A DNA stretch of 64,000 nucleotides from a virus (taxonomy: Duplodnaviria > Heunggongvirae > Uroviricota > Caudoviricetes): IMG/VR virus record IMGVR_UViG_2671180747_000017, one strand, 5' to 3'. Positions 1-6,000 of this stretch are shown here, in pieces (within the stretch, counting starts at the first letter, position 1; each line of letters begins with the position of its first letter). The position numbers are program-made.

Positions 1-3000
1 TCAGTTGATTGATGTACGTCGCATTTTTCGAAGGCTGGCAATATGCATTTCCTTCTCAATTTCCGCTTTAATCATGTGTAGTTCGTTGTGGTCGACTCGC
101 TCAAATTCTTCATTAAATGCACCAATTGAAGTGGCTCGGGTTCTGCCGTCGAGTCTTCGGTAGATCACCTGAGTAAGAGTTACCTTGCAGATTTCCACCG
201 GATAGTTGTTGGCATCGACGAAAGATTGCCCGCGCTGGATCAGGACGAACACCGGTAGCATTCCTTAACTGTCATATCATTTGCACCTCGTTGCTACGGC
301 TATCGCCATTGCTCCCCAAATACAAAACTAATTTCAGCCAGTGCTTCGTCCATTTTTTCGATGAACTCCGGCACCATCTCGTCAAAACCAGCCATGTATT
401 TTTCATCCCGCTCGACCACGACATAATGCAGGCCTTCACGCTTCATGCGCGGGTCATAGTTGGCGAAGTACCAGGCATCTTTTCGAGTCACCCACATGCT
501 GAATTGCACCTGGGCCATGTAAGCTGATTTTATGGCCTCGAAACCACCGAGCCGGAATTTCATGAAATCCCGGGAGGTAAACGGACATTTCAGCTCAAGG
601 CCGTTGCCGTCACTGCATAATCCATCCGGAGAGCAGGCGGTACGCATACTTTCGTCGCGATAGATGATCGGGGATTCAGTAATATTCACGCCGGAAGTAA
701 ACTCAAACAGGGCTCTGGCGTCGTTCTCGTACTGTTTTCCCCATGCCAGGGCTTTGGCGTTAACTTCCGGGGCCACACCCGTGCAGACCTCAGCCAGCAG
801 GGTGTGGAAGTAGGACATTTTCATGTCAGGCCATTTCTTTCCGGAGCGGGGTTTGGCTATCACGTTGTGAACTTCTGAAGCTGTGATGACCCCGAGCCGT
901 AATTTTTGCCATGCATAATCTCCCTGCTCGACACCTCTCACGTCGATCCCGGTACGTTGTAGGATAATTTCTGGTGTCATGCTGCCACCTTCTGCTCCGT
1001 GGCTTTCTGTTTCAGGAATCCAAGAACCTTCTCTGCTTCGGCCTGGGACAGTTCTGACGACGCCCGAATGTAGCGGCGAAATATCTGAGAACAGAGCGGC
1101 AAGAGGTCGTCATCCCACGTTTTTTCCATGGAAGTAAGAAGGGCGTTAATTTCCGACATGGTCTCTTCGTTAACCGGGGTGATGTCGCGTTCCGGCTGAC
1201 GTTCTGTAGTATATGCGGTATTTTCGACAATGCGTTCGGCTTCATCCTTGTCATAGATACCAGCAAATCCGAAGGCCAGACGGGCACACTGAATCATCGC
1301 TTTATGCCGTAACATCCGTTTGGGATGCGACTGCCACGGCCCCGTGATTTCTCTGCCTTCGCGGGTTTTGAATGGTGCGCGGCGACATTCATCCATCCAC
1401 TCGGTAACGCAGATCGGGTGATTACGGTCTTTGCGGTAAATCCGACATGTACAGGATTCATCGTTCTGCTCAAAGTCCATGCCATCAAACTGCTGGTTTT
1501 CGTTGATAATGCGGGACCAGCCATCAACGCCCACCACCGGAACGATGCCGTTCTGCTTATCAGGGAAGGCGTAAATTTCTTTCGTCCATGGATTAAGGCC
1601 GTACTGGTTGGCAACGATCAGCAATGCGATGAACTGCGCATCGCTGGCATCACCTTTAAATGCAGTCTGGCGAAGAGTGGTGATCAGTTCCTGTGGGTCG
1701 ACAGAATCCATGCCGACACGTTCAGCCAGCTTCCCTGCCAGCGTTGCGAGAGCTGTACTCATCTGGTTTATACCTCTGAATCAATATAAATCTGGTGGCG
1801 GGCAATGGTTTCAACCATGTACCGGATGTGTTCTGCCATGCGTTCCTGAAAATCGACATCGTCATCAAATGCACGGGCAATGGCTTTTTTGCTGGCTCCA
1901 TGACGTTGCAGATTATCGATGCACAGCGATTCAAACAGGTGCTGGGGCAGACCTTTTTCCAGGTCGTCCGCCAGTTCAGTCTCATTTTCTTCACGGGTAA
2001 TTTGCCGGTAGTGTCGTGCCCATGACTGCTCTTCAATGCGATCGGGGATAAGCCAGGCATTCATGATTTATCACCTCCAAAATTTTCAAGCCTGTTGGCA
2101 ATCATGATTGCGATATCAGGGATTGCTGGCGCTGTTGCGACGCATGCAGGGTTTGCGCACAAACCATAGACGGCTGCAAGCACGAGTTGCCTTTTCCAGT
2201 CGAAATCTGCTTGCTCTGAATCATCATTATTGTCAGAAGCATCACTATCTGGATCGATGTGAACAACCGAATCGTGTTCCTGAGTTGTATCAACAGCATT
2301 TTTCTGAATGTATTCATTCTTCATTTGTGCCTGGTCATCTCCAGCAGCGGTCTCATTTTCTCCAAAAGTTTCAGCGTAAGTTTCATCTCCCATTACTGGA
2401 CCACAGTCAGGGCAATGCCCGCCACTGTTCTGACCGCATGCGGTGCAAACCTTTTCCACTTCCTGTTGCATTACTGGCCCAGGCTGTTGCTCTTCCGGTC
2501 CGTTTTGTTGCGTATCCGGGCTGTTTTGTTCCACTTTGGATTGATTCTGGTCCTCAGTGTCGCGAGTCTGGATCCCCTTCACCCACTTCGGGTCGGTTGG
2601 GTCGCTGATGCCTTCAACGAACTCCCCACGAGAGGCAGCCAGCAATTTGTCTGCATCGACAGGATTTTTGGGCAAAATGTTTTTCCTGGCTTCATAGAGT
2701 TCTGCTCTCAGTTCCTGGTATTTCGTTTCTACAGATGAGACATTTTCCAGTGATTGCGTGTCCGCATTATGTTTAACTGGAATTTCTTCCACTGATTCAG
2801 GCGCTGCCTGTTCATTAGACATTGCGTCCGATGTTTGCTGCTTTTCTTCATCGTCATGTATCTCTTCTGCTGTTCCGCGCTGCGGCATCGGGGCTGATGA
2901 GCGACCGCAGGCAATTTCCACGATTTCCGGATCCGGGTTAGAGTGATCGGTTTCGGTCAACACTTTGTTGAGATATTCAGTCACGCGCGCCGGGATAGCC

Positions 3001-6000
3001 TCAATGCCAATTGGTGCTTCTTTCACTGAAGCCACCACAATGGCGCGGGAATAATCCAGCCCACCGGGCATGGCGATGAATTTGTCACGGAAAACAGAAA
3101 AGGGCGGTTTATTCTCTGCAACGATTTCTTCAACGCGTTTTGCATGTGCAGGGTGCAGGTTATAAATATCCACATCCATTGAACGGGCCAGAACGCCAGT
3201 GGCAATGTCTCGCGCCAGTGATGCCTGATTGTGGGTAAAGCCTTCGCCACGATCGGTAAGATTTCCGCCGCCAGCGTTAGCACCGGAAGGCGTACGAGTG
3301 ATGCCTGTAACATAATTTCCTTTCTGCCATTCTTTTGCCAGCAATCCCTGATCCACATAGTCTGTTTTCATCCAGGTGGAGATGAACTTGTCGAATTCGG
3401 CCGGGCTGATATGACGGGGTGTTGCGTGAGAGAATGCCTTTCCAACGGATTGTGCCAGTCTTCCCAGATGATAATTCGTCAGCTTATCCAGCTCTGGATG
3501 TGAACGCACAGCAGTAAGCAGGCTCTGAAGGTAACTGTCTTCTGTGTCCATCTCCATACGGATCACGTTATTTCGTTGTTCGGGTGTGGCGTGATGCCGA
3601 TATTTTCCATCTTCATCTTTGCTGAAGAAGAGGTGAAGGAAGCGATGAGTAAGGCTCAGAGTGGCGACGGGAATTTCACACTCAGAACAGTCATCGTCGC
3701 TGTCCGGGGATTCGCTTTTCTCCACATCATCCGGAATAGTTCCGTCCAGGTTATCGTAGTCATCGCCAGCTGTTGTGGCATCTTCACCGTTGATGTTGTC
3801 ATCGAAGGGGATTGCCATCATGGTGATGCCATCTTCCCCGCCTTTTTCATAGCGGTTGCAGAATTCAGTATCAAACACGCCTTCCGGTGGAAGGTCATTC
3901 ACGACGGGGAAATTTACGCGAACGGGTTTTTTGAAATCATCCTCGTCGTAGCCTGCATCGTCCATGGCTGCAATGCAGCGGGAAACTGCGACAGAAAGTT
4001 TTCTGGTATCAGCCCAGAAAAAACCGCCTTTGATGCCAAGGCGTTTTCTGACTTTATCGTTTTTTGCTTCGCAGTGCAGTGCAAAAGTTTGTTTATCAGC
4101 GCTCATTGTATTTAAACCTCTGGCTGGATTAGAATTAGCGGCCCTTTGTCTGATTTCTCCGAATACAGTGACGCAGGGGGGAGTCCGGTAGCCTGCGCTG
4201 CCGGATTTTTTATTTCAGTGTAAGGTTGCCTGGTTTGTTGTTTTGTGAGTTGTTTTTTTCTTTTCATGCTGGCAGTCAGAGCAGTTGCATTCGCCATTTT
4301 CTCTGAGAAGTTGAAGTGCCAGGGTCAGTTCCTGAATTCTTTGTGGATCAATATGACTGTCGACAATTTCAGATGCAGCATGAATATATGGGCTGGTGGT
4401 TTCGCAATATAAACCGAAGGAAACAAAGCGACTGTCTTTATATTCGTTATTTCCAACTTCTGTAAGCACTGAAAAAGAAAATACAAAGTCGATTTTGTGT
4501 TTTTTGCATATTTTACTGATGCGTTCTGCAATTTCTTTGAGTTCATTTATTGCATCAGGACTGGTTTCGGAAAAAAATTCATTTTGCGCAAGTTCTTTCA
4601 TTTTGATTTTCCCGTGATTGATAATTAATGTGGTTTTTATTTCGGTTTGTCTGTTACAGATATGGAAGGTGTATTTTATTACTCGTCACAACTACTCTGC
4701 TTTTACAGGTAAGCCATCGCGCCCGATGAAAACTTTAATCATGCAGTCGGTAATGCATGTTTTTGTAGTCAGGCTACGAATATAGAGCTTTCTCTTTTCA
4801 ATATTGTTTGCTGAAGCGATATATGTGCGGCCTTCATGAAGAACATAATCGCCAGGTTTCACGCACTGACGTGGTATTTCATCAGTTCCGAAGTGATGAG
4901 CAATCATAATTATCTCCATTTTCACAAATGAACTTTGTTGATGCGGTGCCTAGTGCCTCCAGGTGACGTTAACCAGTTAACAATTAACGCCGGAGCAGGG
5001 GATGATGATTTTCCGTGACATCCTGTCGGTTTAACTGTTCCGCGTGCGCATAGCCGCATTCACCGCATCATAAAATTCACTTTTAAAAAGGGCGGACATC
5101 AGCAATCGGCAAACCGATGTCCGCCAAAGAGGATATTGATACATGGATGTTGCAGCGGGGTTGTCACTCAGGCGTCTGGGGCGATTTCCATTATTTACGA
5201 TGCACTTGAAACATTCCTTGATCGAAAACTTTCATCTGTCACCGACGGAACATCGAGTAAGCAATAACATTTAACACACACTCTAAATAACAAGGGGTGG
5301 GCTTGATACCGTTCTTTTCAAGCTCACTCGTAATCACCTCCAGAAGTCGTGCGCCCATGAGAATTGTCTTGTGGGATGAAGCTATTACGCCGTTGCTGAT
5401 ATTGCTGTTTATTTCTATTGCTTCATTTTCACCATTCGCGCTAACTTCGGATATGTTATTTTCACTCTCCTGTTTCAGAGCTTTTTCTGCCATCCGGATG
5501 CGTTCCTGCGTTGCGGAGTTTGGGCTAAGTCGATAAACCTGTCTGGCATCTTCCAGAAGCAGGGCGATAATGTGCTTCAGTTCTGTTTCGTTCATAGTTA
5601 ACTCCGGTAGTTGCAATTTATTAATATCAGGCGGTCAGCTCTTTAAGCTTCTGAACTGCTTTATTCATTTCATCCATACAGTCGATGAATTCGTCCAGTT
5701 TAAGCTGCATTTTTCCGGCGGCCTGAAGAATTTCAAGTTTTAAGGGCGCAAGTTTTTTGTTGAATACATCATCTTCCTGGCGTTTTTTCTCCGCAATTTC
5801 GGCGGCTTTCAGCAATTCTTCCGCCTGCTTTCTGAGTATTTCTGGTGAAGGTGAAACTGCTTTTAGGTTATTCATTTCAGGTTCCTGTTGTTGCAGAATT
5901 AATTTGTTGCATTCTCTGCGTGAGCGTTTCATCGCAGATTCGCACTTCTTGCAATAAATGGCTCTCCCGTCACGTTTGCTGGCATCTGAATAAAAATCAT

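Follow-up and report, generated by a model that had tools for sequence, protein, structure and literature searches.

A RecE N-terminal module apparently without its nuclease, co-translated with Gam in the early-left operon of an Stx1a-converting phage

RecE, the exonuclease VIII of Rac-type prophages, is a workhorse of recombineering. To our knowledge, two thirds of this protein have been without an assigned function for decades, and the sole effect known for that region is a much higher proficiency of full-length RecE in linear–linear recombination. Here we describe a 681-amino-acid (aa) relative of this region, encoded on the minus strand (2061..4106) of a 64,000-nucleotide (nt) stretch of viral DNA, the IMG/VR virus record IMGVR_UViG_2671180747_000017, hereafter called the window. 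The open reading frame (ORF) comprises 681 codons and a stop codon, starts with ATG, is preceded at 10 nt by a candidate Shine–Dalgarno sequence (AGAGG) and lies exactly where an initial annotation, made from the sequence alone, had placed it; with thousands of homologues, an ORF of this length is far beyond chance. Nuclease-less relatives of RecE, named ‘RecE-2’, are mentioned in passing in a report on lambdoid Rec modules, where their role is left open and where DnaQ-like nucleases are also reported in such modules (Genome Res 2025, PMC12315714). The kind of protein has thus already been reported, and the 681-aa protein probably adds a member to it.

The initial annotation had not recognized the family of the protein, which is that of the RecE/ExoVIII N-terminal region. 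PF06630 (Exonuc_VIII) was the sole Pfam family to pass its cut-off, matching aa 53–196 with 47 bits (cut-off, 25 bits). The NCBIfam profile NF007259 (exodeoxyribonuclease VIII) matched with 2e-223 and 744 bits, over profile positions 1–593 of 877 only and short of the equivalog cut-off of 1269 bits, and phrog_607 matched over positions 1–618 of 883. Identity amounted to 80% with the RecE of O111:H8 across query aa 1–625, to 59–62% with Rac-SA53 RecE and to 54% with the K-12-type RecE of 866 aa. All pairwise alignments with RecE stopped short of the nuclease domain, at RecE residues ∼546–610, and only 56 residues were left beyond the shared region. In the Pfam searches PF12684 (PD-(D/E)XK) was absent from the 681-aa protein and from its O104:H4 homologue and present in O111 and Rac-SA53 RecE, and the DEDD domain PF16473, found in fused relatives, was likewise not found in the 681-aa protein. 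Together with a detectable relationship to RecE and a predicted structure that beyond aa 512 offers a helical hairpin only, these comparisons identify the protein, as far as its sequence can tell, as a stand-alone RecE N-terminal module devoid of a nuclease domain, which should not be a nuclease and, by the same reasoning, cannot be exonuclease VIII. In GenBank and RefSeq, it and its relatives are named ‘exodeoxyribonuclease VIII’, ‘exonuclease VII’ or ‘RecE family exodeoxyribonuclease’; because the homology is to the N-terminal region of RecE and excludes its enzymatic part, these names are to be regarded as functional mis-annotations. A homology to a characterized phage protein, which the initial annotation would have taken as a sign against a takeover function, does therefore exist in RecE, but the homologous part is the very portion of RecE that is uncharacterized.

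An AlphaFold2 (AF2) model built on an alignment of 80 sequences contained two domains of very high confidence. The N-terminal α/β domain (aa 1–104; 3795..4106, on the minus strand like all features of this ORF), whose first ∼35 residues are basic, reached predicted local distance difference test (pLDDT) values of 86–98, and its coding sequence (nt 1–289 of the ORF) and the 5′ ends of prophage genes for DEDD-type exonucleases are 81–82% identical. The mostly helical core domain (aa 141–410; 2877..3686), which defines the family and begins at a CxxC motif (aa 140–143), reached 85–98 by 10-residue block. The two are joined by acidic disordered linker 1 (aa 105–140; 3687..3794; net charge −13; pLDDT <50 at aa 105–137), and the core is followed by acidic disordered linker 2 (aa 411–454; 2745..2876; net charge −11). 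Then come a region with helices at aa 456–475 and 485–492 and a conserved peptide (aa 455–512; 2571..2744; pLDDT 59–93), which matched phrog_2082 and phrog_20376, a zinc-ribbon-like motif (aa 551–578; 2373..2456) modelled at low confidence, a further acidic linker (aa 579–629; 2220..2372) with pLDDT <50 and a mean identity of 0.46 among close homologues, and a C-terminal tail domain (aa 630–681; 2064..2219), a predicted helical hairpin (aa 630–650 and 653–675; pLDDT 59–76) in the place of the nuclease. The segments predicted as disordered were aa 105–137, 420–454 and 513–632. The PF06630 match (window 3519–3950) runs in this model from the end of the N-terminal domain across the disordered linker into the first part of the core, so that its boundaries would correspond to no structural domain and have nothing to do with the nuclease. 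Foldseek comparison of the model with PDB yielded no credible match (best E = 2.4), nor did BFVD, which holds viral structures (best E = 0.016 at a probability of 0.14), and neither sequence nor profile searches with core, tail or peptide-plus-zinc region matched any PDB sequence. The structural check proposed in the initial annotation hence delivered two confident domains, but both, as modelled, are without solved fold relatives.

Conservation was blurred when 80 mosaic proteins were aligned over their full length, and the domains were therefore re-aligned one by one. In the core (aa 271–391) this revealed the sharply conserved motifs RTxSGxxAGG..TDR, DIY, PGxLDYSRA and LTExDHxxP with a polar cluster of invariant type (TDR/DYSR/ExDH); no core residue was invariant over all 77 core sequences once the most divergent members were counted. 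The peptide at aa 489–509 (LAASRGEFVEGISDPTDPKWV; 2580..2642), with the consensus LAAxRGE(F/Y)VxG(I/V)SDP(T/S)DPKW(V/I), is 75–90% identical in loci of Citrobacter, Klebsiella and Kluyvera, in which the core is only ∼30–43% identical, and such a short, near-invariant peptide amid predicted disorder is what one would expect of a motif that docks on a conserved partner. The protein contains 12 cysteines, among them CxxC at aa 140–143, CxxC-x7-CxxC at aa 554–568 and C650 and C655 in the tail, all of these motifs being retained in ∼112 close homologues. The initial annotation had read the CxxC clusters as suggestive of metal binding, and for one of them, C554-x2-C557-x7-C565-x2-C568, a zinc-ribbon-like conservation speaks in favour of this: its cysteines are retained in 109–111 of 113 sequences and the ribbon is 58–71% identical in other such loci across genera. 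The Pfam match to DZR, with E = 0.28, falls short of confirming it, and the site should be regarded as putative.

The ratio of non-synonymous to synonymous substitution rates (dN/dS) of the gene was 0.20 overall, 0.2–0.26 in the N-terminal domain, 0.12–0.14 in the core, 0.11–0.31 in the peptide and zinc region and 0.20 in the tail. The linkers at aa 411–460 and 584–625 are nearly neutral (0.65–0.95; ∼0.95 in linker 2 and 0.65–0.71 in the last linker), and two of the four linkers, linker 1 among them, contain too few changes for a verdict. Because dN/dS is low overall, in the core and in the tail, and because full-length homologues occur down to 79% identity, the gene is maintained by purifying selection and is not decaying.

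Similarity to RecE runs out near aa 625, with the last shared segment, and the final ∼52 residues do not resemble RecE. This tail was confined, among phages, to the present lineage, no other phage context being found by blastn or tblastn. In other genera a motif of the form W/Y-x-Q-Q-L-T-I-A-A-L-Q-G-L-C-A-N-P closes nuclease-less proteins, and AAxxGLCxNP, including Cys650, was invariant in all 15 aligned tails across genera, that of the 681-aa protein included. The tail motif also ends phrog_2201. The tail alone matched phrog_26058 weakly (E = 0.009), and aa 177–423 of the protein matched the same family with 9e-30. Because the motif closes nuclease-less proteins in other genera too, the nuclease-less form with a tail is probably an old, conserved architecture and no recent accident. 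An origin of the tail as a separate small gene was also considered; no such gene was found elsewhere in phages by blastn or tblastn, and only a profile search returned unannotated ORFs of 50–100 aa with the tail motif, of which some are fragments and some possibly stand-alone. The idea that the hydrophobic tail spans a membrane was dropped, as orthologous tails are amphipathic with Q, N, D and E.

The stop codon of the ORF overlaps the start codon of gam (1768..2064, minus strand; 98 aa, GamS-type, phrog_259, 6e-55) in the tetranucleotide ATGA (2061–2064), and the GGAGGT Shine–Dalgarno sequence of gam (2073–2078) sits inside the ORF with a spacer of 8 nt, the whole coupling signal thus occupying 2061–2078. 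Eight of eight related E. coli and Shigella loci have this 4-nt overlap in their annotation. This arrangement bears out the translational coupling noted in the initial annotation and shows that the protein is co-translated with Gam. Further 3′ follow bet (977..1762, minus strand; 261 aa, phrog_252, 6e-124) and a lambda-type exo (300..980, minus strand; 226 aa, phrog_149, 5e-65; PF09588 YqaJ in relatives), and no recT is present there. The RecT-superfamily annealase of this locus is Bet (PF03837 in relatives), which lies two genes away from the 681-aa ORF and has an Exo of its own as partner.

Searched exhaustively, 1.84 billion representatives yielded only 217 clusters with the module, and a species-level genome scan found it limited to Enterobacterales-type genomes; by these sequence searches the family is narrow. 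Of 66 long representatives, 17 carried PF12684 (PDDEXK), 11 PF16473 (DEDD 3′–5′ exonuclease) and three PF03837 (RecT). In 60 genome loci the module was joined to PDDEXK in 31, in 23 of which a RecT match lay immediately 3′, and to DEDD in 19, where no annealase match adjoined. Four loci (two from Lelliottia, one each from Enterobacter genomosp. O and Enterobacteriaceae G50) encoded tail-bearing nuclease-less forms with DUF7740, excisionase and integrase genes on their 3′ side; one locus, from Pantoea, had another C-terminal domain and stood beside a Mu-Gam-like gene, and the last five comprised truncated genes, fragments or a RecT fusion. By these counts in representatives and loci, the RecE N-terminal module is a constant unit that is combined with interchangeable DNA-end effectors. 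Two candidate assignments in these loci were rejected: DUF7740, a gene product of ∼98 aa after the distant tail-bearing members, is not a divergent Gam as judged by BLASTP, which found no similarity, and the Pantoea C-terminal domain could not be assigned to an annealase, since Pfam and PDB searches were empty and phrog_7838 (‘exonuclease’) was its sole match.

Several individual loci deserve mention. A contig binned as ‘Veillonella parvula’ in a metagenome-assembled genome (JAGZPX010000007.1) carries at 5305–7743 a DEDD-type module gene 81–94% identical to E. coli versions, and this apparent Firmicute sequence has most probably been mis-binned and belongs to an Enterobacteriaceae prophage (locus L019). 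In the Actinobacillus phage vB_Apl-pPE4 (PP818812.1, 3396–4262) an ‘exodeoxyribonuclease VIII’ gene shows 80.8% nucleotide identity to query nt 766–1623, which is unexpectedly high for a Pasteurellaceae phage and could reflect either a recent exchange or a mis-assigned host. A Citrobacter braakii locus (L015, 5323–6747) encodes the core fused to a C-terminal segment of RecT in an ORF of 474 aa, and this fusion and the three PF03837 representatives may be fusions that arose by deletions taking out the nuclease of RecE together with the beginning of recT. In E. coli ECMA0423 and Shigella flexneri SFBU1023 (L009 and L010, 5305–6729) the module gene is truncated to 474 aa and ends in the helix region, with a Gam gene ∼1.2 kb to the 3′ side (7972–8292), as if the block of module, Gam and neighbouring genes had been disrupted there.

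Full-length copies of the 681-aa gene were found in the Shigella phages 75/02 Stx and POCJ13 (98.6–98.7% identity), in phiSTEC1589-Stx1c and PhiR5_2 (∼90%), in the O104:H4 prophage and in 89 of the 5426 complete genomes of E. coli. The full-length variants numbered more than 100, spanned 79–100% identity and included no truncated copy. It is thus a minority accessory gene. The block KilR – ∼130-aa ORF – module – Gam – Bet – Exo with its ATGA overlap was intact in eight of eight E. coli and Shigella loci, in which immunity regions and integrases differ. The first ∼1580 nt of the ORF are 89% identical to intact O111 recE, the left flank is Rac-like (kilR), and lambda-type homology restarts 42 nt into gam, which gives the E. 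coli version the appearance of a recombinant. The window itself is an Stx1a-converting 933W-like phage, with stx1A/stx1B at ∼19974–21300 (plus strand) being 100% identical to those of the Shigella phages POCJ13 and Ss-VASD. It also contains a giant ORF of 2806 aa (48669–57089, plus strand), LPD5 domain-containing (large polyvalent) in relatives and 90–99.9% identical in 186 Stx-type phages. Ss-VASD has the stx genes and the giant ORF in common with the window and is absent among the matches of the 681-aa gene, which offers a natural comparison with and without that gene.

Toward exo the genes are ordered N-like, Nun-like, a 238-aa ORF, a 125-aa ORF, Kil, a 128-aa ORF, the 681-aa gene, Gam, Bet and Exo; because Kil, the N-like and the Nun-like genes lie 5′ and Gam, Bet and Exo 3′, this is an early-left (PL-type) operon. 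The 128-aa ORF (4215..4601, minus strand; phrog_2016), with a C-terminal CxCxxC, adjoins the nuclease-less module gene on its 5′ side, both in the window and in each of the eight E. coli and Shigella loci examined, and could function together with it. The 238-aa ORF (window 5627–6343, minus strand; phrog_2539) has a cysteine-rich middle which matches a Lar-like restriction-alleviation family (phrog_5558, 1e-9) as well as endonuclease VII/HNH-type zinc-finger families, and would on these matches be a better anti-restriction candidate than the 681-aa protein. The Nun-like transcription-termination factor (window 6694–7047, minus strand; phrog_5632, 2e-69) is encoded directly 3′ of, and overlapping, the N-like antiterminator ORF (7001–7438, minus strand), so that both factors are present in one phage.

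As to its role, we tentatively favour, at somewhat less than an even chance, a protein without catalytic activity of its own that assists DNA-end processing in phages as an accessory or adaptor, in this case for Gam, Bet and Exo. In other prophages the module is covalently joined to whichever end-processing domain that phage employs, a PD-(D/E)XK 5′–3′ exonuclease, a DEDD 3′–5′ exonuclease or occasionally RecT, and in the present phage it would act in trans as a separate polypeptide, made in stoichiometric coupling with Gam, beside Gam, Bet and Exo. The conserved peptide and the putative zinc ribbon may dock on a conserved partner, be it a host protein or a DNA end; the folded N-terminal and core domains may carry the activity by which full-length RecE improves the joining of linear DNA, and the tail may supply the oligomerization or partner contact that in RecE is given by the oligomeric nuclease domain. 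Several points weigh against this proposal. The docking and tail roles are predicted only, and the polar cluster TDR/DYSR/ExDH could mean that the core is an enzyme rather than a scaffold. Module genes of the DEDD type also occur without an adjacent annealase, and no recognizable Gam, Bet, Exo or RecT was found near the distant tail-bearing genes of Lelliottia, Enterobacter and Enterobacteriaceae G50, so the module can exist without a phage recombinase. Furthermore, Gam was present in 2866 genomes as against 74 with the tail–gam junction, that is, most gam-bearing E. coli prophages lack the 681-aa gene. The miniRecE fragment E121–T222 (PMC12825301) was also considered as a recombination-promoting N-terminal fragment and was discarded, as full-length RecE has P121 and L222; its numbering fits a construct of Met plus residues 587–866 (E706/T807), which places it in the nuclease domain and not in the N-terminal region.

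Two further readings are less likely. In one, the core would be an autonomous enzyme or ligand-binding effector that acts on a target in the host and does so without any phage recombinase, with a pocket that is catalytic or binds a small molecule or a metal, and its fusion to nucleases would be just one deployment. The invariant polar residues in the four motifs RTxSGxxAGG..TDR, DIY, PGxLDYSRA and LTExDH, which lie partly in a long, non-helical loop of high AF2 confidence (aa 262–293), the lack of any known fold and the distant nuclease-less members without a neighbouring recombinase would all suit such an enzyme. We consider it unlikely, since not a single residue is invariant in all 77 core sequences including the most divergent, no similarity to an enzyme family emerged from Pfam, PHROG, NCBIfam or profile searches, and the module is overwhelmingly tied to DNA-end enzymes. 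In the other, to which we likewise give a minor chance, the ∼600-aa module would be an autonomous effector of orphan fold that docks on a conserved host factor through the almost invariant LAAxRGEFVxGISDPxDPKW and the zinc ribbon, and that is deployed fused to DNA-end enzymes, alone with an oligomerizing tail, or as a free takeover or anti-defence factor controlling DNA ends. Were this true, the ‘dispensable’ two thirds of RecE would be a previously unrecognized functional class and no spacer.

A role in anti-defence or host takeover, as an acidic DNA mimic or decoy inhibiting a host nuclease, a restriction system or a defence system in the manner of Gam, Ocr or ArdA, was implied by the initial annotation, which was right in two of the properties on which it had built: the gene does lie in the early-left operon immediately 5′ of gam, among N-like, Nun-like, Kil, Gam, Bet and Exo neighbours and coupled directly to gam, and the protein is acidic (D + E 18.2%, K + R 9.7%, net charge −58, isoelectric point (pI) 4.56), as are all of its relatives (pI 4.6–5.0), several of which have acidic stretches at roughly equivalent positions. 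The accessory distribution, in ∼1.5% of E. coli genomes, and the distant members that need no recombinase would fit as well. The idea of a mimic nevertheless fared poorly, and we regard this role as rather improbable: 43 of the 58 net negative charges fall in four linkers predicted to be disordered, two of which evolve almost neutrally (dN/dS 0.65–0.95), rather than on a folded surface, and the folded domains are near neutral (pI of the core 6.2). PADLOC gave no match for the protein, no mimic or anti-defence family was found in Pfam and no such structure in PDB or BFVD, and the same module is integral to bona fide recombination nucleases. That the gene is an inert remnant, a recE stripped of its nuclease when gam-bet-exo replaced the 3′ part of recE and recT, would agree with its 5′ 1580 nt being 89% identical to intact O111 recE and with flanks that are Rac-like on the left (kilR) and lambda-like on the right, but is very improbable in view of purifying selection that extends to the unique tail, of more than 100 full-length variants at 79–100% identity with zero truncations, and of a tail motif kept in other genera at ∼30–45% core identity. 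Least probable by far is an active exodeoxyribonuclease VIII, or VII, which only the database names suggest: a PD-(D/E)XK or DEDD domain is lacking, the RecE alignment ends before the nuclease, the NF007259 cut-off is missed and a mere 56 residues remain. These last two explanations are effectively excluded.

In this phage a RecE N-terminal module is thus naturally split from its nuclease and kept under selection beside the lambda Red genes, as it is in Stx-converting phages and in the prophage of the O104:H4 outbreak strain, and this split provides a clean and tractable genetic handle on the function of the RecE N-terminal region. The elements to be tested are defined, namely the putative docking peptide and zinc ribbon, the polar cluster of the core and the tail with its invariant cysteine. 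Shuffling has joined the module to three different C-terminal effectors, its folds are without solved relatives, and a systematic mis-annotation as ‘exodeoxyribonuclease VIII/VII’ is flagged in thousands of database entries.

Compared with known systems, the 681-aa protein shares with the RecE of Rac-type prophages the N-terminal ∼590–625 residues, the PF06630 match, the putative docking peptide, the zinc-ribbon-like motif and the place after kilR in the early-left operon, whereas RecE carries PD-(D/E)XK (residues 564–866) where the 681-aa protein has its 52-aa AAxxGLCxNP tail, and is followed by recT instead of gam-bet-exo; the 681-aa protein also misses the NF007259 cut-off. The prophage DEDD ‘3′–5′ exonuclease’ proteins (PF06630 + PF16473), such as the 813-aa protein of ST131 (L004), are homologous over their N-terminal ∼600 residues, with 45% identity overall, the first 96 aa near-identical and the putative docking peptide and zinc-ribbon-like motif included, but have their own C-terminal Rv2179c-like DEDD exonuclease, no tail, and no adjoining gam, bet or exo. 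The DNA mimics lambda Gam, T7 Ocr and ArdA are likewise acidic, expressed early and encoded in or beside the same operon region; they bear their charge on a rigid fold, whereas that of the 681-aa protein lies in disordered, poorly conserved linkers, and there is no similarity in sequence or fold. Proteins of the phrog_26058 type (633 aa) resemble the 681-aa protein in core domain and C-terminal tail motif, while in their distant members a different middle domain replaces the putative docking peptide and zinc ribbon and the genes are not beside gam-bet-exo. ‘RecE-2’ (PMC12315714) is likewise related to RecE, lacks the nuclease domain and is encoded in the early-left operon, as is the protein described here.

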